This document shows, piece by piece, positions 1 to 18,873 of a DNA stretch of 64,000 nt. This stretch comes from an uncultured candidatus Porisulfidus sp. (GTDB lineage: Bacteria; Pseudomonadota; Gammaproteobacteria; Poriferisulfidales; Poriferisulfidaceae), in NCBI GenBank assembly GCA_965204575.1, contig OZ241993.1, forward strand, positions 512,001 to 576,000, read 5' to 3'. Position 1 is the first letter of the stretch. The number at the start of each line of letters is the position of its first letter. A model generated the notes under the pieces. It was given only the letters and a program-made list of their open reading frames with translations. It was not told where the DNA came from and ran no database searches. The position numbers and the translations under genes are program-made.

Positions 1-2512
1 GGACCTGCCCGGCCTCGTCGACGAAAAGGCAACCGAAGGCGCCCCGAAATTCCTCCCGTGAAAAGAGCCAGGCCGTTCCGCCGACGATACGGGCGGAGTG
101 GATCGCGGCAGCCTGATTGTCCTTCACGCAGGAAACGGCTTTCTCGTATCCCTGCGGGAGGTCGGTTCTGGCCGAAACCTTGTGGGCGATTTTTACATTG
201 CCAGTGCCTTCCTCGCGCAACGCATGGACGCATTCCATCAGAACGTTGCGAATCGCCTCGTGACTGTTCGAAGAGACCGCGACGCGCCGGCCGTCCCGGA
301 CCAGCGCGAGAATGGCGCGCGCCGTGACATAGGTCTTGCCGGTGCCAGGCGGCCCCTGGACCGGAAGGACGGACTGATCCAAAGCCCGCACCGCCGCGAT
401 CAGACCCTGAAGCGGTTCGGATTTTTCATCCAAGGGAAGCGGAGGCGGGCCGCGGAAGCGGGGAGGGTTGCGCGACAGGACGTCTTCGGCCGCCCGGTTG
501 CGGCGGGAGTTGCACTGGTCCATCACAACCTTTCGAATGGCCCCGGGAATCGAGCCCGGATTCAGGGCGAAGCCAGGGAGCAAATCCAACTGGTCGGGAA
601 GTGGCCATCTCGAAGAGGAATACAAGAGAATCTTCCGGCCGCCCCGATCAATACCAGAGATTTCGGCCGAGGCGAAAAAACCGTCCGGACTTGCGAACAG
701 GGCGGACTGTCCCGCTCGCAGTTTCGTCTCCTGCGGCGGATAGCGGTATTCGCGCCCGTGCGAGCCCGCCTTGCCGGATGCGACCAAACCGGCCAGACAT
801 TCCAGGTCGTCGCAAAGATCCTCGAACTCTTTCGCCTCGGCATCGAAGACAGCCCAGGCCTGAGGCTTTTTCTCGCGCCAGTGGAACACGCCAAGATCGA
901 AGAGCATGCTCCGGCGCTCTTCCGGCAAGCCGGATGCGGCAAGCAGGTCCGCGAGTCCCTTGTTCTCGTCCTGTTCCCTCGCCGCCCTCGGCGTCTCCCC
1001 CTCCCGGGCCCGAGGCCAAGACCCTTCCGGCCGAATACCGATCAGCCAGTCGCGCAGTTTTTCAAGCGAGAGGCAGTCGAGGCGGTTGTACTCCTCGAGT
1101 TCCGCGAGGATTCCATCCTCGCCCGTCTCGCGCCACTTCTCGTAGGCGACGATCGAGTCGCCGCCGGACGCGACTTCCCCGTCACGGGGCATGTCGTAGA
1201 AGGCCTCCATGTCCTTGAGCGAATAGGAGGGCTCGGAAGCGAACACGCCATTGCGCACGACGGCGTAGAGATCGACGAAGCGCTCTTCCCGCAACCAGCA
1301 GTCCAGCCGCGCTTCACCCAGGCCATGCCGCATGGCGAGCTTGCGCAGCTTGGTGATCTCGTAAGACGCGTAGTGATAGATGTGCGCGTCCGGGTGGTGC
1401 ACGAAATGTTCTTCGAACCGATTGAACAAGGATGCCAGTGCTTCCTTCTCCGCCGCATGATCGTGCGCCCATAAAGCGGTGAATTCCTGCCCGTCCCAGA
1501 CACCGTGGAGATATTCCAGGCCGTCCGACCCTGCCTCGGCGTAGTGCGGGTCCCCCTCGATGTCGTAGAACAGGTCACCGGGGTCGGGCCGCGGCATCAG
1601 GTCGAAACCCTTCCCGGGAACTGGGGGCCGCAGCTTGAACGAAGGCCCGCCGGTCTTGCGGGCGTGCTGGAGCCGGGCCTGCTCGCGCAGTTTCTCCGTG
1701 GTCTCGTCGGCAAGCCTGAGAACCTTGCCTTCGTGCTGGGCGAGCGCCTCCACCGTCCGGACCCCGGTCGCTTCCAGCTTGGCGACCTGGCTCTTCCGGA
1801 TCCCGGCGATCCGGTAGAGGCTATCCGTCTCCTTCCATTCTTCGGCGCAATGCTCCCGCCAGCGGCAAAGGTCGCAGAAATCACATGGAACCGGACGGGT
1901 AGGCGGGGGCGTCCGGACGAAATCCTCAAGTTGTTCGCGTGTGGCGCGCGCGTAGTCGGAGTGTTCGGCCAAGCGAACAGTGGCCCGCTCGCCCGAGCCG
2001 AGCTGGACATGGGCGCAGTCCGGCGCGAGGCCCTGAACCTCTGCGAGAAGGTCGGAGTAAAGCGCCAACTGGAACACGTGGTCCGGAGCAAGTTTGCGTT
2101 TCAGTTTGGTGTCCATGACCTCGTAGGAAAACGGCCCTAATTCGGATGGGGCCGACACGCGCTCCAAGAAGTCCGCGTAGCCGCCCCACATTCCGTCTAC
2201 AAGCGCGCCTTGGTAGATGATGTCTGGCCCGGCCTCTAAGGCTTCGCGCGTGGCACCCGCCGACTCCCCAAGAGAGAAACCCTCCGCCTCAATTCGCACG
2301 ACCGTCTTGCCTTCGGCCTCAAGCTGCGAAAGATATTCGGTCTCGTGCTGCTCGCCGCGCCTCTGCAGCAGGACGGTGTCTTCGCTGTCCCCGACCGGCG
2401 TGAGATCGTCTCCCTGAAGATAGGCGAGGTCGAGTTGCGTCGCGTGCGGGCAGGCAGTGAACCGCTTGAGGTCCGAGGCCGACAGCCGGATTCCTTCACC
2501 GTCCTTTCTCAT
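1..2512 (-). CDS. TM0106-family RecB-like nuclease fused to RNase H-like and SF1 (DNA2/NAM7-like) helicase domains; 3'-truncated by the window edge
   Basis: Absent from the ORF track because it runs off the edge; translated by hand from ATG 2512: MRKDGEGIRLSASDLKRFTACPHATQLDL; GYADFLER..YEVMDTKLK..HVFQLALYS (PD-(D/E)xK); CDFCDLCRWREH Cys cluster; DLFYDIEGD; Walker A QGPPGTGKT (~335-360); Walker B LFVDEAGQV (~1-30). Confidence 0.88.
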   Translation of the reverse strand, partial: MRKDGEGIRLSASDLKRFTACPHATQLDLAYLQGDDLTPVGDSEDTVLLQRRGEQHETEYLSQLEAEGKTVVRIEAEGFSLGESAGATREALEAGPDIIYQGALVDGMWGGYADFLERVSAPSELGPFSYEVMDTKLKRKLAPDHVFQLALYSDLLAEVQGLAPDCAHVQLGSGERATVRLAEHSDYARATREQLEDFVRTPPPTRPVPCDFCDLCRWREHCAEEWKETDSLYRIAGIRKSQVAKLEATGVRTVEALAQHEGKVLRLADETTEKLREQARLQHARKTGGPSFKLRPPVPGKGFDLMPRPDPGDLFYDIEGDPHYAEAGSDGLEYLHGVWDGQEFTALWAHDHAAEKEALASLFNRFEEHFVHHPDAHIYHYASYEITKLRKLAMRHGLGEARLDCWLREERFVDLYAVVRNGVFASEPSYSLKDMEAFYDMPRDGEVASGGDSIVAYEKWRETGEDGILAELEEYNRLDCLSLEKLRDWLIGIRPEGSWPRAREGETPRAAREQDENKGLADLLAASGLPEERRSMLFDLGVFHWREKKPQAWAVFDAEAKEFEDLCDDLECLAGLVASGKAGSHGREYRYPPQETKLRAGQSALFASPDGFFASAEISGIDRGGRKILLYSSSRWPLPDQLDLLPGFALNPGSIPGAIRKVVMDQCNSRRNRAAEDVLSRNPPRFRGPPPLPLDEKSEPLQGLIAAVRALDQSVLPVQGPPGTGKTYVTARAILALVRDGRRVAVSSNSHEAIRNVLMECVHALREEGTGNVKIAHKVSARTDLPQGYEKAVSCVKDNQAAAIHSARIVGGTAWLFSREEFRGAFGCLFVDEAGQV

Positions 2513-3279
2513 CGTGCCATCCCCGAAGCCCGGAACAACCGCACAAATTCTTCGCCCGACAATGACTCGGCTCTTCGTTGGGAATCAATACCCGTTTCGG
2601 TCCACGCTCGATCCGGAATTTCCGGCAGATTGTTGCGCAATGTCTTCCGTCGCGATGCAAATGCCCGGCGAACCAGACGCGTGAAATCCTTTCGCTCCTC
2701 CTCTTCAATCGGAAGGCTCTCCTTGGGCACCAATCGCACGACGGTGGAGACGACCTTGGGTGGCGGGTCGAAACATTCCGGCTCGACATCAAGCAGCATC
2801 TCCACCTGCATCAGCAGTTGAGCTACCACCGATAACTGCCCGCGCGATGGGTCGCCCGGGGGCGCGGCGAGCCGCTGCGCGACTTCGCGCTGCACCATTA
2901 CGGTCAGATCCGCCAGATGTGTCCGCAACTCCATCCAGCGTTGCAGGAGTGCGGTCGCGACGTTATACGGCAGATTGCCCGCCAGTCGCAAACCTCTCGG
3001 ATACACCGAAAGGTCCGCGCGCAGCGCATCCGCACAACGGATCGTGACTGCCGGGTTGTCAGCAAACTGCCGTTCCAGATGCGCAGCAAGATCCGAATCC
3101 TTTTCGATGGCGATCAGGCGCTTCGCCTGCCCCGCCAGTGAATGCGTCAGTGCACCGCGGCCAGGCCCAATCTCGACCAGAGTGTTGCTGGGACCGATTG
3201 CCGCGACAATTTCCTCGATCTTTGCCGGGTCGGTAAGAAAATGCTGCCCCAGGCGTTTTCGCGGCGGTGGCAGGGTCAT
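2509..3279 (-). CDS. rsmA: 16S rRNA adenine dimethyltransferase RsmA/KsgA
   Basis: KRLGQHFL, EIGPGRGALT, GNLPYNV, MVQREVAQRL, FDPPPKVVS motifs; position downstream of pdxA. Confidence 0.97.
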   Translation of the reverse strand: MTLPPPRKRLGQHFLTDPAKIEEIVAAIGPSNTLVEIGPGRGALTHSLAGQAKRLIAIEKDSDLAAHLERQFADNPAVTIRCADALRADLSVYPRGLRLAGNLPYNVATALLQRWMELRTHLADLTVMVQREVAQRLAAPPGDPSRGQLSVVAQLLMQVEMLLDVEPECFDPPPKVVSTVVRLVPKESLPIEEEERKDFTRLVRRAFASRRKTLRNNLPEIPDRAWTETGIDSQRRAESLSGEEFVRLFRASGMAR

Positions 3280-4931: not shown

Positions 4932-6213
4932 CCTGTTCCTCGGTCATGTAGCGGACATAGGAATTGTTCAGCATCCGCCGCAACCAGATCTCGATCTCGT
5001 CGTTGACCCGCGAGCGGGCGAGATGGTTCAGCGCGCGTGTGCGCAGGGTCGATTCGGTCTCGTCCACCTTGCGGCGTTCCAGAACCTGAACGATATGCCA
5101 GCCGAATGAAGATTGGAACGGTTCGCTTATCTCATCGATTTCCAGCCGATTCATCTGTTCTTCGAAATAGGGGTCCAGCATTCCCGGCGAAGCCCACCCC
5201 AGGTTTCCTCCATCCGAAGCCGAAGCCGTATCGTCCGAATGTGAGCGGGCCAGGTCCTCAAAACGATCACCGCCATTGATTCGGTCCTTCAGCGTATTCA
5301 GCTGGGCAAGGGCCTCCCTATCATCAATGAGGGCATTGGGACGAATCAGGATGTGACGTGAGCGGGTCTGATTCACCATGACCTGTTCCCCGCCTTCCTT
5401 GTCCGCCAGATAGAACAAGTGAAAGCCACTGGGGCTTTGAAGCGGTTCCGTGACCCCTCCGATTTCCAGCTTGGTGATTGTGTCCGCGGCAAAACTAGGC
5501 AGTTCCGCTTCGACACGCCAGCCAATATCGCCCCCATTGAGGGCATTGCGGCCATCCGATTCGGTCAGGGCAAGACTGGCGAAGCTCTCCCCGCCGCGAA
5601 CCCGTTCGGCCAAGGCCTGTGCCTTAGCTCGGCGCCGATCTTTTTCCCTGGGAGCCATCTGCCCCTGCGTTGCGATCAGGATGTGATTCAGTTGGTACCG
5701 GTTGTCGGTCTGAAGACGGTCCGCATGCAACCGGAGAAAGTTGTCGATCTCGTCTTCAGTTACACGCACCAGGCGGCGAGACTCGATTTGCTGCAGATGC
5801 TGGGTTAGCAACTGCTCGTGAAGGTAATTGTAAAAGCTGATGAAGTGAATGCCTTCTTGCTCGATCTGGCGACGAAACTGTCGGGGGTCCATTCCGTTGC
5901 GTTCCGCCAGCGAACGGATTTCCTTCACTACCGCATCGGGGGGCAGGGAAATCCCGCGTTTCTCGGCAAACTGCATTTGCAGCCGGGCCATCACCATGTA
6001 TTCCAGAACCTGGGCGAAAAACTGCTCCTTCGGCGGCAGTGGCATCCCGCTTTGCAGGATCTGTTTCCCGATGATCGAAACGCGTTCTTCGAGCTCCGAC
6101 TGGGTGATGATGTCTTCCTCGACCACCGCCACGACCCGATCCAGAAGTTCAGCCGTCGCAACCCCGGACCCCAATGCCAGGATCAAAGCTGCACCGCGAA
6201 TCAACGTAACCAC
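4924..6213 (-). CDS. surA: Periplasmic chaperone/PPIase SurA
   Basis: Signal peptide, LDRVVAVVEEDII, two parvulin domains (HILI..GGDIGW; HILI..GGNLGW..SSFGWHIV); synteny. Confidence 0.95.
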   Translation of the reverse strand: MVTLIRGAALILALGSGVATAELLDRVVAVVEEDIITQSELEERVSIIGKQILQSGMPLPPKEQFFAQVLEYMVMARLQMQFAEKRGISLPPDAVVKEIRSLAERNGMDPRQFRRQIEQEGIHFISFYNYLHEQLLTQHLQQIESRRLVRVTEDEIDNFLRLHADRLQTDNRYQLNHILIATQGQMAPREKDRRRAKAQALAERVRGGESFASLALTESDGRNALNGGDIGWRVEAELPSFAADTITKLEIGGVTEPLQSPSGFHLFYLADKEGGEQVMVNQTRSRHILIRPNALIDDREALAQLNTLKDRINGGDRFEDLARSHSDDTASASDGGNLGWASPGMLDPYFEEQMNRLEIDEISEPFQSSFGWHIVQVLERRKVDETESTLRTRALNHLARSRVNDEIEIWLRRMLNNSYVRYMTEEQGV

Positions 6214-8477
6214 GCCGACTCCCCGTCCATTTCCCGATGCATGCGGGTTTCGACGTCTTCGCCAACTCCAGCCAAGCCATGGAAACGAACATGGAGCAGC
6301 ACGCGATCATCGTACTCCCCGCCCGGCAACCCCGATTCTCGCCGCACCTTCCATGCGCCAATCCCGACCGTCATGCAGCACCCGCGGTGTTCCAAGGCAG
6401 TCAGCAATTCCAGGCTGCGGTCTTCATGAAAGTCATAGCGGTAGCGAAAAGCCAAGTGCCAGTTGTCACCCAGTGGCAGCAGCGCCTGTGCGTCCGCCTG
6501 TTCCAGTTCCGGCTCGCCCGGTACCCCCAATGCCGGGTTCCCGACGTACTCCACGTTTCCGGCCCGGTGGATGTAGCGAACCTGAACGCGTTCGTCGTCA
6601 TTGCCGTCCCAGCCGAGCATGTGAGAGGCCCAGGTGATGTCGTTGCCGTCGCGGTTCGGATCGTAGCGGAACGCGGACCGGACCTGGAGTTGCGGCGTCG
6701 GCCGCCATTCCATCTGCGCCGCCCAGGCGGACTTCGAGTCATCACCCTCGCCCCCCTTGATCAGGCCGCCTGGCGAGCGGAAATACCAGACCCGTCCAAT
6801 CTGTGCCCGCAACTTGAGATAGCCGGAGATCGGGTCGATCACCCGCGTCGTAAGCCCGGTCGCCACAAGGTCGGCACCGCCGATCCGGTCGCGCCCGGCA
6901 GCCCGGGCACCCCGGAACAGGGCGTCGTAGTCAAGTTCAAATCGCCGGGAGTCAAAGTCCGGGATGTCCGAATGGTCGCGGCGCTGGCGGTTGAGGTAGA
7001 AAAGTTGCGGCTCCAGAGTCTGCAGGGCGCCACTCTCCAGTTGGCGCTCGAAGCGCATCCGGGCATCGACACTGAAGATCGGCAGGGTCCGGCTTGGAGT
7101 CCCTTCCAGCTCTTCTCCCAATAGTGCTGCCGCTTTTTTCGCCTCGCCGGAGAAATCAAGATCGTACTGTGTGTGGCGCCACTGCAGGCGAGGCGTCACC
7201 TGCCAGCCAGTCCCGGCGAAGCGGCGTGCGACCGTCAGCCCCGCATCGTAGCGCTCGCCCTCGACGTGCAACGTGTCCAGGTCGCCTCGGAATACGTCCA
7301 CCGCCAGCATCGGCGACAAAACCAGGCCGGTCGACGGCATCTTATAAGAGCCTGCAGCGCGCACCTGAGGCAGTTGGTCCCACTGTTCACTGTGGCCTTT
7401 GAGCGGGTCGCTTCCGGTCACCGCGGCACTGACGGTCCAGTTATCGGAGCGCCAGGCCACGCGGGCCTCCTGACGCAACCGGGTCGTTGACAGATCGTGA
7501 ATCCCTGCCTTGAAATCCTCCAGGTAGGTCCCGTCGGACACGTTCGTGTAATTCACCTGGTAGTCCCATCCGCTCGGGCGAACCGCACTGTGCCGCCAGT
7601 GCAGCAGGTAGCGATCATCGTTCGCCTTGTTGTCGCTCAGAAACTCCGCCTTGGCCGTGCCGGCCCCATGATGCGTCCGGTAGCGACCACTGGGTTTGAT
7701 CTGGAGCCCCCGCCGACCCAGATACCGTGCCGACAGCACCGCATCGTAATGCGGGGCAAGGTTGAAGTAGTACGGCAGTTCCAGCGAATAGCCCAGATCG
7801 TCGGATGTCCCGATTTCCGGTGTCAGCCAGCCGCTCATGCGCTCCTCGCCGACCGGAAAACCCACCCAGGGCAGGTACATCACCGGCATGGAACCGACTC
7901 GAAGGACGATGTTGCGCGCCTCGCCCTGCCCCACATCCGGATCGATGCGGACAGATTTCGCCCGCACGTTCCAAGCCGGGTTTTCCAGACCACAAGTGGA
8001 ATAGCTGGCCTCTTCCGCCTCCAGCTTGCCATTCGGAGTCCATGTCATCTGCCGCATCTCGCCGGCCCCGCCGCCACCTAAACGAAAGCGGGCTTCGGGG
8101 ACCTTCGCCCGGCTCTCCCCATATTCCAGCTCCACCTGTTCGGCCTCCAGCGCAATTCCCGGCCCACTCATCCGGACCCCGCCGCTGAAGGAAATGCGTT
8201 CCTGTTCTTCGTCGATTGCCGCGGAATCCGAACTGGCGCGCAACGCGCCGTGGCGCACCCGGACATCCGAGCTTAATTCAACCCGGCCGTTTTCGCGTAC
8301 TATTTGCCCCGCCTCTAGTTCGAGTTCTCCGTCTCCGCCGGCTTCCGCGCCGATTTCGATTGGTCCGCAATGCGCCGGTTGCAATGGTTCCGGTAGTGGT
8401 AGGGAATCCTGGGCTCCGGCTCCTGCTACCCAAGCCCCCAAGGCCAAAGAAAGCAGGATGCGGTGGAAAATCAGCAT
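6201..8477 (-). CDS. lptD: LPS assembly outer-membrane protein LptD
   Basis: Signal peptide, OstA-like N-terminus, YSTC, PYYFNLAPHYD, QTLEPQLFYL, C-terminal CC; lptD-surA-pdxA synteny. Confidence 0.95.
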   Translation of the reverse strand: MLIFHRILLSLALGAWVAGAGAQDSLPLPEPLQPAHCGPIEIGAEAGGDGELELEAGQIVRENGRVELSSDVRVRHGALRASSDSAAIDEEQERISFSGGVRMSGPGIALEAEQVELEYGESRAKVPEARFRLGGGGAGEMRQMTWTPNGKLEAEEASYSTCGLENPAWNVRAKSVRIDPDVGQGEARNIVLRVGSMPVMYLPWVGFPVGEERMSGWLTPEIGTSDDLGYSLELPYYFNLAPHYDAVLSARYLGRRGLQIKPSGRYRTHHGAGTAKAEFLSDNKANDDRYLLHWRHSAVRPSGWDYQVNYTNVSDGTYLEDFKAGIHDLSTTRLRQEARVAWRSDNWTVSAAVTGSDPLKGHSEQWDQLPQVRAAGSYKMPSTGLVLSPMLAVDVFRGDLDTLHVEGERYDAGLTVARRFAGTGWQVTPRLQWRHTQYDLDFSGEAKKAAALLGEELEGTPSRTLPIFSVDARMRFERQLESGALQTLEPQLFYLNRQRRDHSDIPDFDSRRFELDYDALFRGARAAGRDRIGGADLVATGLTTRVIDPISGYLKLRAQIGRVWYFRSPGGLIKGGEGDDSKSAWAAQMEWRPTPQLQVRSAFRYDPNRDGNDITWASHMLGWDGNDDERVQVRYIHRAGNVEYVGNPALGVPGEPELEQADAQALLPLGDNWHLAFRYRYDFHEDRSLELLTALEHRGCCMTVGIGAWKVRRESGLPGGEYDDRVLLHVRFHGLAGVGEDVETRMHREMDGESAWLR

Positions 8478-8499
8478 AGAAACAACCTCGCGGCCCGAC

Positions 8500-8660
8500 G
8501 CCGCAAGATAGTGTATTCTACTGTGGGAAAGATAAAGGAAAGTTGGCAGACAGGTCTCTACCTGATTTCCCTATTTCTTGACGCTTCACAGGCCGAGCAA
8601 CCCTCTCACGGGGTTGCCCGCCACCTCCACGTCCAGCCGCCCCATTCCCGAAGGCCAAGA
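8500..8660 (-). ncRNA. Putative TnpB omegaRNA overlapping the 3' end of tnpB (boundaries uncertain)
   Basis: Hairpins GGGCAACCC-N7-GGGTTGCTC (8595-8619) and CAGGT-AGAG-ACCTG (8551-8564) lie in the low-complexity tail after RuvC-III, where omegaRNAs are normally encoded. Confidence 0.6.
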
Positions 8661-9807
8661 TGTTCAATGCGGCGTTTACATCCGCATCGTCCGTGTGCCC
8701 GCAAACGGTGCACTTGAATTCTGACTGCGAAGGACGATTCTCCTTCGACACATGCCCACATTGATGGCACGTCTGGCTAGTGTACGCCGGACGCACCTTG
8801 CGCACCTCCATCTTGTAGCTCAGGCAGTTCTCCAACACGCCCCAGCAGGAAACTAGGATCTTTCGATTCAGCCTGGATTTCGCTTTAACATGTTTACCTT
8901 GTTTCTCCGTCGTGCCTTTGGCCGATTTCGTCATGTCTTTGATGTTCAGATTCTCAATATAAGCGAGGTCGTACCGCGAGGCGATGCCTTTACTGGTGTG
9001 GTGCGCCCAGTTCAGACGGGCGAAACGTTCCGCTTGGTATGCCTTCTGCAACCGCACTTTCGTAATCTTCCGCCGATTGCTTCCTTTCATCTGACGGGTT
9101 ATTTTGCGCTGGTATCGCTTCCTCCGGGCGATCTTCTTCTCAATATCCGGGCCTGGGTGTTTGGTTCCATCAGAAAGAACCGCCCAACGGCCATCCGACA
9201 CATTGCGGTCAATCCCAACCTCCCTTATAGCGTGAGGAAGACTACCCTGTATGCTTACTTCGTAAGTCAGGTAGGCGTACCAGTTCCCGCACTCATGCCG
9301 GATTCGCCCGGACTTGAACTCGCCATGCGGATACGGGTTAGCTCCTGCAAGTTTCATCCACCCGATCTTTTGCACATACAGGCTGTCGCCGGAGATTCTC
9401 GCAGAGACATAATTGATCGGAAACGAAGGTCTGGTGGTATGCTTGCCATGGAATCGTGGAGGTTTCCGGTTGAGTTTGCCTCCTGCCTTCACATCGGCAA
9501 AGAACGCTTTGTAGGCCATCTCAATGGGCTGAAGGGAATTCTTGACGATATAAGCCGAATAACCCTGCAACCACTTGTAACTGTGTTGTCTAAGTATTGT
9601 GAAAGTTTTCCCTAGTCCCGGTGTCGGAACGGTTTTCGTGGACATAAAGTAGAAGTTGCATGATCCCCAAGCTTCATGTTCATCCCTGAGCTTCCCAACC
9701 ATGTGGTTCCAGACGAACCGACAGGCTCCAGCAGTGCCATGCAACTGCCGATGCTTTCGGCTTGAGCCAGGATACAGGCGATAGCGTACGATGCGGTGGG
9801 TTTTCAT
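8518..9807 (-). CDS. tnpB: RNA-guided endonuclease TnpB (IS200/IS605 family, no tnpA nearby)
   Basis: YRLYP..GACRFVWN HTH; RuvC-I GIDRNV, RuvC-II IENL, zinc finger CHQC..CTVC, RuvC-III DADVNAALNIL, all catalytic acidic residues present; start placed at ATG 9807 (ORF track 9822). Confidence 0.95.
   Translation of the reverse strand: MKTHRIVRYRLYPGSSRKHRQLHGTAGACRFVWNHMVGKLRDEHEAWGSCNFYFMSTKTVPTPGLGKTFTILRQHSYKWLQGYSAYIVKNSLQPIEMAYKAFFADVKAGGKLNRKPPRFHGKHTTRPSFPINYVSARISGDSLYVQKIGWMKLAGANPYPHGEFKSGRIRHECGNWYAYLTYEVSIQGSLPHAIREVGIDRNVSDGRWAVLSDGTKHPGPDIEKKIARRKRYQRKITRQMKGSNRRKITKVRLQKAYQAERFARLNWAHHTSKGIASRYDLAYIENLNIKDMTKSAKGTTEKQGKHVKAKSRLNRKILVSCWGVLENCLSYKMEVRKVRPAYTSQTCHQCGHVSKENRPSQSEFKCTVCGHTDDADVNAALNILAFGNGAAGRGGGGQPRERVARPVKRQEIGKSGRDLSANFPLSFPQ
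8532..8553 (+). repeat. Inverted repeat, copy 1 (ATAAAGGAAAGTTGGCAGACAG)
   Basis: 20/22 identical to the reverse complement of 9832-9853. Confidence 0.9.
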
Positions 9808-9813
9808 CAGGCA

Positions 9814-9842
9814 ATTCTCCATCGGCGAAGACTGCCTGTCAA
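9814..9842 (-). promoter_or_regulatory. sigma70-like promoter of tnpB, predicted leaderless
   Basis: TTGACA (9842-9837), 17-nt spacer, GAGAAT (9819-9814), 6 nt, ATG 9807; overlaps an imperfect hairpin 9808-9838. Confidence 0.6.
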
Positions 9843-9853
9843 CTTTCCTTTAT
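9832..9853 (-). repeat. Inverted repeat, copy 2 (ATAAAGGAAAGTTGACAGGCAG on the minus strand)
   Basis: 20/22 identical to 8532-8553; contains the TTGACA -35 box. Confidence 0.9.
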
Positions 9854-9891
9854 AGTTTTCTCTAATATTTCTCTTTTAGACCGACCTTATC

Positions 9892-11115
9892 ATGCCTCCC
9901 CCCGCACCCTCCAACAACTCACACGGCAGGTTGCGCCGGTTTTTCCCATCGAGGCGGCAAGGGCTCTGGTCGATCGGCGTCCTCGGCCTGTTCGGCTTCG
10001 CGGCCTATGCTTTGGTTGCCACCGCGCCGCAGCCGGAAGCAGTCCTGACCGACCTGCCAAGTCTCACGGTAGAAACGTACACGGTGGTGCGGAAGGATAT
10101 CGCACCGCATGCCACCTTCACGGGCCGCCTGCAGCCGCGCCGCAGCGCGGCATTGCGCTTCGAGGTTTCCGGCCAGTTGCTGCATCGTGCGGCTGAACCC
10201 GGGATGACCGTTTCCGCCGGCGACACGCTACTGGTTCTCGACGACCGGGACTTCAAGGATCGGGTACGCACCGCCGAAGCGGAATTGCGCCTGGAGGAAA
10301 GCGGCATCGAGCGGGACCGGGTCCAGCTGGAACAGGCGACCCGGCATCGCGAACTGCAGCGCGAAGAAGTTGCGCGTCACACGCGGTTGGGCGAGCGTTC
10401 GCTGCTCTCGCAGTCTTCACTCAACGCCGCCGAGCAGAAACTCACCGAACTGGAATCGCGGGTGGCCGAACTGACGCATTCGGTCGAGACGGGCGAACAG
10501 CGCCTCGCGTTGAAACAGGCGAAATTCGACCAAGCCCGCCGGGATCTTGCCCGAACCCGGCTGACCGCACCCTTCGACGGACGCGTCAACACCGTGCTCG
10601 CCGAAGTCGGCGACCGCATCACCGGCGACCAGACGGTGGCTTCCGTGGTCGATGTGACGGAACTGGACTTCTACGTGGAAGTCGACGGCGCCACCGCCCT
10701 TGCGCTGGAACTCAACCAGGAAGTCACGGTGAAAACCGGAGAGGAAGAGCGCCCCGGCATTTTGGTCGCCCTGCAGACCGATCCGGACCCGCGCACTTTC
10801 ACGCATGCGGTTCGCATCCGGATCCCCGGCGACCGTGCCGCGCCGGGGCAGTTGGCCGTTGCCCGGCTGCCCCTGCCGATCATCAGGAACGCGCTGGTGG
10901 TGCCCGTGGAGGCCCTGCGAGTGGATGCGGCCGGCCAAGCCGTGTTCCGTATCGAGGGGCAGTCGCTGCAGCGCATCGCGGTCACGCCCGGACCCCGCGT
11001 CGGCCCCTGGCAGGTGATCGAGTCGGAATTGGAGGAAGGAGACCAGATCGTCGCCCGTGACGCCGCGGCCATGGATGTCCGTCGTCCCATCCGCGTGCGT
11101 GAACGGACGCCATGA
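9892..11115 (+). CDS. RND efflux periplasmic adaptor (MFP)
   Basis: N-terminal TM segment, lipoyl halves (FEVSGQL..; LTAPFDGRV), long alpha-hairpin, LVVPVEAL; start uncertain. Confidence 0.9.
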   Translation: MPPPAPSNNSHGRLRRFFPSRRQGLWSIGVLGLFGFAAYALVATAPQPEAVLTDLPSLTVETYTVVRKDIAPHATFTGRLQPRRSAALRFEVSGQLLHRAAEPGMTVSAGDTLLVLDDRDFKDRVRTAEAELRLEESGIERDRVQLEQATRHRELQREEVARHTRLGERSLLSQSSLNAAEQKLTELESRVAELTHSVETGEQRLALKQAKFDQARRDLARTRLTAPFDGRVNTVLAEVGDRITGDQTVASVVDVTELDFYVEVDGATALALELNQEVTVKTGEEERPGILVALQTDPDPRTFTHAVRIRIPGDRAAPGQLAVARLPLPIIRNALVVPVEALRVDAAGQAVFRIEGQSLQRIAVTPGPRVGPWQVIESELEEGDQIVARDAAAMDVRRPIRVRERTP

Positions 11116-17361: not shown

Positions 17362-18873
17362 ATGGATCGTTGCCGCCCCACTATCCTGGTCATCCTGGAC
17401 GGGGTCGGCATCAACCCCGACCCCCAAAACAATGCCTTGGCCCAGGCGCAGACTCCGCGGCTGGACGCCCTGTTCTCCGAACATGCGTTCACCCAGTTGC
17501 AAGCCAGCGGTGCCGCAGTGGGCCTGCCGGACGGGCAGATGGGAAATTCCGAGGTCGGGCACATGATTATGGGGTGCGGGAGCATCGTCCTGCAGGATCT
17601 GGTCCGCATCGATCAAGACATTCGTGACGGCTCATTCTATGAAAACCCGGTTCTGCTGGAATCTGTCCGTGAAACGGCCGCGCGCGGCAGCCGGTTGCAC
17701 CTGCTTGGCCTGGTGTCCGACGGCGGGGTGCATTCCCACGTCCGTCATTTGCTCGCGTTGATCGAACTGGCGCGACGTGAGAGCGCCGTGCCACATGTCC
17801 ACATGTTTACCGACGGGCGGGACGTCCCCCCGCAAAGCGCCTTGGACTACCTGCCCGAACTGGAGGCAGCGCTCGAAGGCCTCGGCTCCGTCGACACCGT
17901 GTGCGGCCGGTATTACGCGATGGATCGTGACCGCCGTTGGCCGCGCACCCGGCGTGCTTTCGAGGCGATTGTCCATGGGCGGGGAGTTTCTGCGCCGGAT
18001 GCGGCCGCCGCCATCCGGCAGGCTTATTCAAAAGATCTCGGCGACGAATTCATTGAGCCCGCCGTCTGCGCGGGTGCCGCGCCACTGGCACCGGAGGACC
18101 TCATCGTGTTCTTCAATTTCCGAAACGACCGCCCGCGGCAATTGGCGGAGAGCCTGAGCCGACCGATTTTCAAGGAATTCGACCGCGGGAATTACACACC
18201 CGCGAAACTGGTGACGATGACTGAATTCGGCCTTGACCAGGGCGTGCCGGTTGCGTTCGAGGAGGCCCAGCCCGAGGTGACGCTGGCGGAAATCGTCAGC
18301 CGTCAGGGTATCCCGCAGCTGCATTGTGCGGAAACCGAAAAATACCCCCACGTTACGTTCTTCTTCAACGGCGGGCGCGAACCGCCGTGGCCGGGAGAAC
18401 AGCGCGTGATGCTGCCTTCGCCGAACGTCGAGACCTACGACCAATGCCCGGAGATGAGCGCAGAGGCAGTCGCGGATGCGGTGGTCGACGCCATCCGCAG
18501 CCAGCAGTACGGATTCATCCTGGTCAACTTCGCCAATGCCGACATGGTCGGCCACACGGCGCAGGCAGACGCGATCATCCGGGCGATCGAAGCGCTGGAT
18601 GCCCAGGTCGGGCGGATCGTCGACGCCGCGGAAGAACACGGCATGGCCCTGATGCTGACCGCCGACCACGGCAATTGCGACGAGATGATCGATGCGGACG
18701 GGCGCCCCCACACCCAGCACACCACGCATCCGGTTCCCTGTGTCGTCATGGACCAGTCCGGGCGCCACCTGCGCGACGGCGGGGGGCTTGGAAACGTCGC
18801 ACCGACCGTGCTGGACCTGATGGGCCTGGAGCGCCCGGCGGGAATGCCCATGGACAGCCTTCTGACTGCTTGA
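17362..18873 (+). CDS. gpmI: 2,3-bisphosphoglycerate-independent phosphoglycerate mutase
   Basis: LVILDG, GQMGNSEVGH, SDGGVHSH, AETEKYPHVTFFFNGG, DMVGHT, TADHGN. Confidence 0.97.
   Translation: MDRCRPTILVILDGVGINPDPQNNALAQAQTPRLDALFSEHAFTQLQASGAAVGLPDGQMGNSEVGHMIMGCGSIVLQDLVRIDQDIRDGSFYENPVLLESVRETAARGSRLHLLGLVSDGGVHSHVRHLLALIELARRESAVPHVHMFTDGRDVPPQSALDYLPELEAALEGLGSVDTVCGRYYAMDRDRRWPRTRRAFEAIVHGRGVSAPDAAAAIRQAYSKDLGDEFIEPAVCAGAAPLAPEDLIVFFNFRNDRPRQLAESLSRPIFKEFDRGNYTPAKLVTMTEFGLDQGVPVAFEEAQPEVTLAEIVSRQGIPQLHCAETEKYPHVTFFFNGGREPPWPGEQRVMLPSPNVETYDQCPEMSAEAVADAVVDAIRSQQYGFILVNFANADMVGHTAQADAIIRAIEALDAQVGRIVDAAEEHGMALMLTADHGNCDEMIDADGRPHTQHTTHPVPCVVMDQSGRHLRDGGGLGNVAPTVLDLMGLERPAGMPMDSLLTA

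Follow-up and report, generated by a model that had tools for sequence, protein, structure and literature searches.

The window analysed here is a stretch of 64,000 nucleotides from the genome of an uncultured candidatus Porisulfidus sp. (GCA_965204575.1, contig OZ241993.1, positions 512,001 to 576,000). Between two divergent genes, lptD (6201-8477, minus strand) and a gene for an HlyD-type membrane-fusion protein (MFP; 9892-11115, plus strand), it carries a tnpB gene on the minus strand, and a 22-nt sequence at the 3' end of tnpB recurs in inverted orientation at the tnpB promoter. For this match, the original prediction, made from the sequence, had offered three models: RNA-guided repression of tnpB through its own omegaRNA, terminal inverted repeats (TIRs) used by a trans-acting DDE transposase, or element ends that pair in single-stranded DNA or RNA. 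We found that the two sequences belong to the ends of a mobile element (8525-9860), whose insertion split the 78-bp lptD-MFP intergenic region and gave rise to an 8-bp target duplication. They are very probably the TIRs of a non-autonomous IS1595-type DDE transposon, in which tnpB and a 3' RNA region stand in the place of the transposase. The element and its parts are:

8525..9860, minus strand: whole mobile element, 1336 bp, in the order TIR, promoter, tnpB, conserved 3' RNA-like region, TIR
8525..8553, plus strand: TIR on the omegaRNA (3') side of tnpB, reading inward GGGAAAGATAAAGGAAAGTTGGCAGACAG, including the arm 8532-8553
9832..9860, minus strand: TIR on the promoter (5') side of tnpB, reading inward GAAAACTATAAAGGAAAGTTGACAGGCAG (the reverse complement), including the arm 9832-9853
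8517..8524, no strand: target-site duplication, copy 1, TCTACTGT, found in identical form, and once only, at each empty site of the genomes G011, G003 and G005
9861..9868, no strand: target-site duplication, copy 2, decayed, TCTAATAT, a 6/8 match; the sequence beyond it is homologous to that following TCTACTGT at the empty sites
8518..9807, minus strand: tnpB, 429 aa plus stop, the stop codon lying within the flanking duplication
9814..9842, minus strand: promoter-like TTGACA-17-GAGAAT (scanner, 10/12), with the -35 box inside the TIR

A repeat search of the window recovered the arms 8532-8553 and 9832-9853 (22 nt, 20/22, 91% complementary). At up to 3 mismatches the 22-mer has two sites in the window, a result seen in none of 100 dinucleotide-preserving shuffles, and no third site in the whole 1,816,663-bp single-contig genome. 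The inverted match reported earlier is thus real, and its 22-nt arms hold; they form the inner part of a repeat that runs outward to 29 nt at both ends (8525-8553 and 9832-9860). The terms upstream and downstream, as used for the two copies in the original prediction, apply in the sense of the transcript; with tnpB read from the minus strand, the promoter-side copy is 9832-9853. We refer to the promoter end as left and to the omegaRNA end as right. The outer parts of both TIRs deviate from the consensus of their type and from a better-kept relative, locus L023 (GGGAACTATAAAGG...), whose TIRs are of the same type as the 3'-end TIR of the window; at the promoter side (9832-9860) the outer GGG has decayed to GAA. 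This copy of the element looks old.

The borders of the element follow from comparison with empty sites. We searched 15 other genomes of the genus with window positions 7700-10700 and found the lptD-MFP site empty in G011, G003, G005 and the more diverged G012; a look for empty sites had been proposed earlier. In the first three, the flanks adjoin at a single TCTACTGT: these sites read ...GTATTCTACTGT and continue directly with the homologue of the window sequence after 9868. The local alignment of the low-coordinate flank stops exactly at 8524 in these three of the four aligned empty sites, and at 8520 in G012. With the boundary at 8524/8525, the element is therefore 8525-9860. It is also on this comparison that an 8-bp duplication emerges (6/8 matching), where no target-site duplication had been visible before. 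The GC content of the element is 52.4%, that of the neighbouring genes 63-66%. Contigs from three DNA runs of one study, compared over 7900-10500, contained no joint spanning the element and no inverted form, so that the suggested inverted alleles were not found among them; these contigs break in the repeated 3' region (8617-8723), and their single joint, 9339 to 9556 (side 21), lies inside tnpB. In the public assemblies of the three runs, summed contig depth reaches 632 at 8596-8769 versus 16-36 around it, as expected for a multi-copy repeat at the conserved 3' region of tnpB.

TnpB, the only gene product of the element, has the architecture typical of its family, a helix-turn-helix domain, RuvC (OrfB_IS605) and a zinc ribbon: HTH_OrfB_IS605 (PF12323), OrfB_IS605 (PF01385) and Cas12f1-like_TNB (PF07282) all score above their cut-offs, and the NCBIfam model guided_TnpB (NF040570) reaches 203 bits with a cut-off of 100. 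The RuvC acidic residues had been described as intact, and the D-E-D triad was indeed located as D200 (GIDRN), E285 (IENLN) and D376 (DADVNAA). It is invariant in five paralogs and aligns with the motifs of the top PDB match, 9yyg_A, an AI-designed RNA-guided nuclease; the closest named relative in the PDB is ISDra2 TnpB (8bf8, 8exa, 8h1j; E = 8e-26). Judged by a ratio of non-synonymous to synonymous substitution (dN/dS) of about 0.10-0.15 between the window copy and five relatives (dS 1.5-2.0, near saturation), this TnpB is under purifying selection, and it is probably an active RNA-guided nuclease.

The likely start codon of tnpB is at 9807 (MKTH...), as in all paralogs; an ATG at 9822 falls inside the -10 box. 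The promoter put forward in the original prediction was recovered by the scanner, which gave one site in 8400-10000 compared with a mean of 1.0 in shuffles, a result that is not significant alone; support for the call comes from the promoter-in-TIR layout, which is kept in the alignment of the paralogous copies. TTGACA is found on the promoter-side TIR and TTGGCA in the other TIR copy. Because the ATG follows the -10 box by 6 nt, the tnpB mRNA is probably leaderless or nearly leaderless. The IS1595 transposase copy of the same genome has, by eye, TTGATG-17-TAAGAT at the equivalent place, reading into the transposase gene.

The window element belongs to a family of tnpB cassettes that occurs in several TIR types, and the same types bound IS1595 transposases and cargo without tnpB. 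The genome of the window (G000) holds six further full-length or near-full-length tnpB copies (71-73% nucleotide identity), of which four have, like the window copy, an intact frame and two are broken. Both TIRs are present at homologous places, about 35 nt upstream of the ATG and at the end of the conserved region past the gene, in six of the seven copies; the remaining one (o2) has the right TIR only. The outer end of the TIR is conserved, GGG(G)AATTATGTA..., and its inner part comes in a few types. A search for related loci returned 24 from metagenome-assembled genomes of sponge-associated Gammaproteobacteria, 18 of them full length. A lack of the inverted match in homologous loci had been named as an outcome that would speak against its significance; instead, the best inverted pair sits at homologous positions in 15 of the 18. 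As to the exceptions, L031 is partial, and the top pairs of L030 and L033 are spurious, although each of these two has a right TIR. A tnpB clade of about 51% identity from another bacterial family (G017) has GGGAATTATATAC... ends, with TIR pairs in L074, L082, L085 and L087, the left TIR alone in L079, and perfect duplications, read by eye, in L074, L085 and L087. Two homologues at 31-32% identity (G260, G042) had no such ends.

Perfect 8-bp duplications at GG.../...CC termini were found for 8 of the 22 elements with both ends located. A match of at least 6/8 was scored for 20 of the 22, an inflated figure, since the script took the best of 256 offsets per element. When all left ends were scored against all right ends, the matrix fell into blocks by type (type C, type A, type B, the window's type and others), the own right end being the best or tied partner of the left end in only 6 of 23 elements. 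The two copies, for which covariation had been proposed as a check, thus vary together by TIR type but not element by element, which is the expectation for TIR sub-families read by related transposases, not for ends obliged to pair. In the genome G009, near-identical tnpB copies with a common right TIR, GGGGCTTATATACCTGACTTGACAAG, occupy six places of contig C1 (L100-L105); as their flanks differ, they suggest recent activity.

TIRs starting with GGGAATTAT together with 8-bp duplications point to the IS1595 family, and tentatively to its ISNwi1 subgroup ('ggnnatTAT' ends). Of the 15 other genomes of the genus, 13 have an IS1595 match. Matches to a profile of the TIR ends flank transposases at the loci L044, L053, L054, L069, L070 and L072. 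Pfam PF12762 plus PF12760 were assigned to the transposases of L044, L053, L054, L070 and L072, and NCBIfam NF033547 to those of L044, L053 and L054 (189-201 bits, cut-off 75); L069 repeats L053 at an identical score, and of these two it was L053 that entered the family scans. Around intact IS1595 transposases, perfect 8-bp duplications were present in all four cases read by eye (L053, L069, L072 and L044). These elements, and the cassettes without tnpB that share the ends, are:

L053: IS1595 element, TIR GGGAATTATGTATTTAACTTGACAGAGG, duplication AAAACAAT
L069: IS1595 element, TIR GGGAATTATGTATTTAACTTGACAGAGG, duplication TTTTGTAT
L072: IS1595 element, duplication TTTGAGTT
L044: IS1595 element, TIR GGGAATTATGTAGCAAAATCTGCAAGC, duplication GGCCATTT, with a methyltransferase (MTase)-HNH passenger
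L054: IS1595 element, TIR GGGAATTATAAAGAATAGTTGACAAA, with an MTase-T5orf172 passenger
G000:C1:1081545-1084092 (L018): IS1595-family element of the window's own genome, ends GTGAATTATAAAGAAAGGTTGATGA... and GGGAATCAAGGAAGGTTGACGGGCAC, like those of the window
G000:C1:16577-17143 (L015 1078-1644): cassette without tnpB, 559 bp, two small open reading frames (ORFs), perfect 8-bp duplication AAAATCGC
G000:C1:585384-587352 (L106): cassette without tnpB, 1.97 kb, two ORFs, perfect duplication TCGAATTT
G000, about 17990-18771 (L015 about 2490-3272): cassette of the same TIR family without tnpB and without transposase

L044 carries the type-C TIR that many tnpB cassettes have, and nearest to the TIR type of the window are L054 and the own-genome element L018. 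The latter holds the one IS1595 transposase locus of this genome (two fragment matches), which is frameshifted into frames of 218 and 106 aa, with the Pfam match on the first part. In L018, the transposase is followed by a DNA methyltransferase passenger, there is a 220-aa ORF in addition, and no duplication was seen. Within the available flanks of 44 tnpB loci, tblastn detected no IS1595 transposase, so that mobilisation would have to be in trans. Neither is a transposase gene found inside the window element, which we file for this reason as a non-autonomous derivative and not as an insertion sequence (IS).

The TIR profile also matches own-genome sites that have no tnpB, represented by the last three cassettes listed above. 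As the same ends occur without tnpB, the repeats are ends of a family of transposable cassettes and nothing peculiar to tnpB. Cargo of the hicAB or restriction-modification type, considered at first for these cassettes, is not backed by a profile, Pfam finding no family in any of the six ORFs inside them. An AbiEi-like ORF lies between two of the tnpB-less cassettes. A solo type-C TIR at G000:C1:395872-398330 (L016) adjoins two small ORFs and an ISL3-like transposase (assignment by eye); this transposase was rejected as a mobiliser, its own ends, GGGTTTGCGGGATAATACC... and GGGTCTTCACGGAATTGTG..., differing by eye from the TIR family.

Two further features concern the right end of the element:

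8525..8688, minus strand: candidate omegaRNA scaffold, 164 nt with strong nucleotide conservation in an alignment of 24 copies, reaching to the element end
8529..8579, minus strand: predicted terminal hairpin (RNAfold, -16.3 kcal/mol, z = -2.7), enclosing most of the right-end TIR

The 164-nt region overlaps tnpB over its 57 terminal codons, and an Rfam scan of 8300-10000 gave no match at E up to 1. Where flank conservation stops, a question raised in the original prediction, can be read from the 24-copy alignment: within a TIR type, conservation extends to the last TIR base and drops in the flank. RNAfold folds the right TIR of most copies into a hairpin, whose 5' arm starts from a conserved AAAUGG and then tracks the TIR type, leaving about 4-12 nt of the terminus free. 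Two outcomes named originally as speaking against self-regulation, a guide that begins past about 8522 and a scaffold stem that locks in 8532-8553, hold at the level of prediction only. For the left end, no consistent hairpin was predicted. Left and right ends differ recurrently (TTGACA versus TTGGCA; ATCTGCAA versus ATCCGCAA), and the right-end variants fit the hairpin because each of them adds a G-C pair. At least 10 of 17 TIR positions are paired upstream in 18 of 23 right ends versus 8 of 23 left-end controls, the elements being related and not independent. RNAalifold, applied to the 24 copies, pairs GGGAAU at 8639-8644 (minus strand; codons FGNG) with the terminal AUUCCC of the TIR, 8525-8530. 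Both motifs are invariant, hence without covariation; the pairing might represent a pseudoknot or other long-range contact that immediately precedes a guide taken from the flank. In the same genome, a more distant second subfamily of tnpB (L008 and L009; G000:C1:226638-226968 and 266719-267049) has a 3' end that closes in TIR-like ...TTGCGGATTATTGTATATGAGCCCC, with an 8-bp stem, ATATACAA/TTGTATAT, reaching up to 7 nt from the terminus.

According to our proposal, an IS1595-family transposase supplied in trans would cut and paste the tnpB cassettes, recognising their TIRs as double-stranded DNA. The model of TIRs used by a trans-acting DDE transposase, one of the three put forward originally, thereby becomes specific to the IS1595 family, with TIR types, duplications and an empty site to go with it. 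The TTGACA in the promoter-side TIR would reflect the usual IS arrangement, with a -35 box in the left inverted repeat. As for the RNA, its scaffold probably extends across the right TIR, which it folds into the terminal hairpin; a variable guide, if any, is proposed to start in the duplicated target and the flank, by analogy with DDE-associated TnpBs. The window copy itself is probably immobile now, because the sole IS1595 transposase of its genome is frameshifted and its outer TIRs have decayed.

Several points weigh against this proposal. No transposition has been observed, the genome contains no intact IS1595 transposase, the duplication in the window is only 6/8, and the outer TIRs are off the type consensus. 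In G009, only one left-end match was found within 3 mismatches, and the one IS1595 transposase locus of that genome showed no such TIR at up to 7 mismatches; cognate pairing of cassette and transposase is thus not established there. Support for the scaffold-hairpin part of the model is weak to moderate. Counted as TIR positions paired upstream, the values for five autonomous IS1595 elements spread from 0 to 15 at their ends; the duplex of arm and TIR has a mean energy of -12.1 kcal/mol with the own TIR and -9.1 kcal/mol with TIRs of other types, the boundaries having been extracted imprecisely; and the own arm pairs best with the own TIR, over every TIR of another type, in 6 of 26 cases. A conserved motif resembling a target-adjacent motif (TAM) was not found 5' of the duplication in 20 elements, the bases there being a purine at -1 in 18 and at -3 in 16 of the 20. 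Finally, the proposal does not account for a TnpB in a transposon that makes duplications.

Among the other explanations, self-regulation of tnpB deserves the closest look. The omegaRNA 3' end, i.e. the right TIR, would guide TnpB to the promoter-side TIR, and two mismatches would turn cleavage into repression of its own -35 box. The 20/22 match is real and overlaps this box, TnpB is intact and under purifying selection, the right TIR stands at the 3' end of a conserved RNA-like region, and nuclease-dead relatives of TnpB (TldR) reportedly serve as RNA-guided repressors. TIRs of the kind that also surround transposase genes and cargo without tnpB account for the match in full, however, which leaves RNA-guided self-regulation unneeded; the -35 box lies in the TIR in the own-genome IS1595 transposase copy, too. 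The TAM context at the proposed site did not hold up, as the sequence 5' of the would-be protospacer varies by TIR type and shows no conserved TAM in the paralog alignment (by eye), and the predicted fold of most copies engages the right TIR in a local hairpin. In omegaRNAs of IS200/IS605 TnpBs, a drop in conservation marks the boundary between scaffold and guide; here, conservation within a type reaches the TIR end and drops only in the flank. The three RuvC residues are intact, unlike in known repressors. Taken together, we consider repression of this kind very unlikely. We would give hardly more credit to an omegaRNA that in this clade has no variable guide; its 3' segment would be the outer TIR and would direct TnpB at all times to the ends of the transposon family it belongs to, be it as a copy-number brake on the TIR-embedded promoter or by a cut at the junction of TIR and flank that aids the IS1595 transposase in excising or re-copying the cassette. 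If true, an RNA-guided nuclease and a DDE transposon would here share their tasks in a new way.

Pairing of the ends in single-stranded DNA or RNA, or a mechanism of the IS200/IS605 type with a Y1 TnpA acting on end hairpins, would agree with two observations: the ends change together between copies, and the prediction for the right end includes a subterminal hairpin, a feature shared with IS200/IS605 right ends. The left end, however, lacks a consistent hairpin, left and right match by TIR type and not by element, and the same TIRs bound IS1595 transposase genes. The 8-bp duplications are equally at odds with it, as IS200/IS605 and IS607 elements have neither TIRs nor duplications according to the relevant sections of a 2026 review (PMC13565253). 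Duplications and type-level matching contradict both the end pairing suggested originally and an IS200/IS605-type mechanism, and we rate either as highly improbable. There is next to no chance that an ordinary tnpB element inserted into the middle of a palindrome, such as a repetitive extragenic palindrome or an operator, the inverted repeats then being host sequence. IS elements that target palindromic repeats are known, and the site is a divergent promoter region; but nothing resembling a TIR is present at the empty sites of G011, G003, G005 and G012, where the flanks join at TCTACTGT, and the 22-mer is found nowhere else in the genome. The empty sites refute this reading, and IS1595-type TIRs remain our explanation of the inverted match.

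The insertion has left intergenic pieces of the window at 8478-8524 and 9869-9891. With the element in place, tnpB sits 47 bp upstream of lptD and reads in its direction, for which reason the tnpB promoter may also drive lptD. Between the two genes there is a hairpin resembling a terminator (8485-8509, minus strand), in sequence largely common to the empty sites.

An ordinary cause for a striking match between promoter and presumed guide removes a tempting false lead. What retains interest is the role of TnpB in a DDE transposon that makes duplications, and the apparent fusion of an RNA scaffold with a TIR. An RNA-guided nuclease of this kind normally re-cuts scarless excision sites, which raises the question of its benefit to a cut-and-paste transposon that leaves duplications, a question also posed in section 6.2 of the 2026 review (PMC13565253). 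The sponge-associated gammaproteobacterial genus described here offers a clean natural system, with many tnpB cassettes in several TIR types and, for comparison, matching IS1595 transposases and empty sites. As the cassettes are compact, their tnpB is under purifying selection and the RNA region is apparently fused to the TIR, the question of the role of TnpB is testable.

Compared with known systems, the window element resembles the tnpB-only IS1341 group of IS200/IS605 in having a TnpB of the ISDra2 kind as its sole gene and a conserved RNA-like 3' region that overlaps the gene end. It differs in its TIRs and 8-bp duplications, where the sections of PMC13565253 on that group describe hairpin ends that are asymmetric, insertion without duplication and a target motif fixed on the 5' side. 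While an IS1341-group element should have neither TIRs nor a duplication, we find 29-nt TIRs, an 8-bp duplication and an empty site. In 2024, Wiegand et al. reportedly described TldRs, TnpB-derived, nuclease-dead, RNA-guided transcription repressors outside transposons. These are the nearest precedent for a TnpB-family protein that an RNA directs to a promoter, but the catalytic residues are intact in our case, and the supposed target is the other TIR of the element.

With the IS1595 family, the element shares TIRs that start with GGGAATTAT..., the 8-bp duplication and the -35 box in the left repeat. Siguier, Gagnevin and Chandler (Res Microbiol, 2009) are said to have described the insertion sequences of this family, members with passenger genes included. 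Passenger genes inside TIRs are found here as well (MTase-HNH in L044, MTase-T5orf172 in L054); unlike family members, the window element has no transposase, tnpB being in its place. A duplication of 8 bp is given for the IS1016 group of the family in the pertinent part of PMC10045372. Transposase-less cargo between inverted repeats with an 8-bp duplication is also a property of the restriction-modification units reported by Furuta, Abe and Kobayashi (NAR 2010, PMC2853133), who found imperfect inverted repeats, an 8-bp duplication and an empty site and, in the passages concerned, consider mobilisation in trans. Their cargo consists of restriction-modification genes, unlike that of the window element, and the mobilising family is not named in those passages, with one mention of IS1595 elsewhere in the paper.

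The closest relatives in kind are the DDE-transposase-associated TnpBs of Altae-Tran et al. 2023 (PMC10691335). The relevant parts of that study describe six such branches, all with inverted terminal repeats, and solo TnpBs whose ends are nearly identical to those of transposase-bearing elements, from which mobilisation in trans was inferred; they also suggest, for DDE-associated TnpBs, a scaffold that includes the TIR and a variable guide from the duplication and flank. Like these, the window element has its tnpB inside inverted repeats. In the elements of that study the TnpB 3' end is within 250 bp of the transposon end (PMC10691335), and here the element end lies about 110 nt past the last conserved TnpB residue. 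Unlike in the DDE-associated branches as portrayed there, none of the 44 tnpB loci considered here has a transposase in cis. The main text of PMC10691335 names IS630 as the only family (branch DDE-6) and contains 'IS1595' zero times, and the sections of the 2026 review (PMC13565253) on this subject list ISL2, IS630 and IS1031 as DDE families with TnpB and call the association of OMEGA systems with DDE transposons rare and unexplained. Our literature search brought up no paper linking TnpB with IS1595, judged by title or the start of the abstract and with the branch listing in the supplement of PMC10691335 outside its scope; a search on ISNwi1 returned nothing relevant, and one combining TnpB, IS1031, IS630 and Cas12 returned only the 2026 review PMC13565253. 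The IS1595-linked case may already be known, if that supplement holds such a branch. In either event, the element is of the known DDE-associated or solo TnpB kind, and the inverted match at its two ends reflects nothing more unusual than the structure of a transposon, of a kind already in print.

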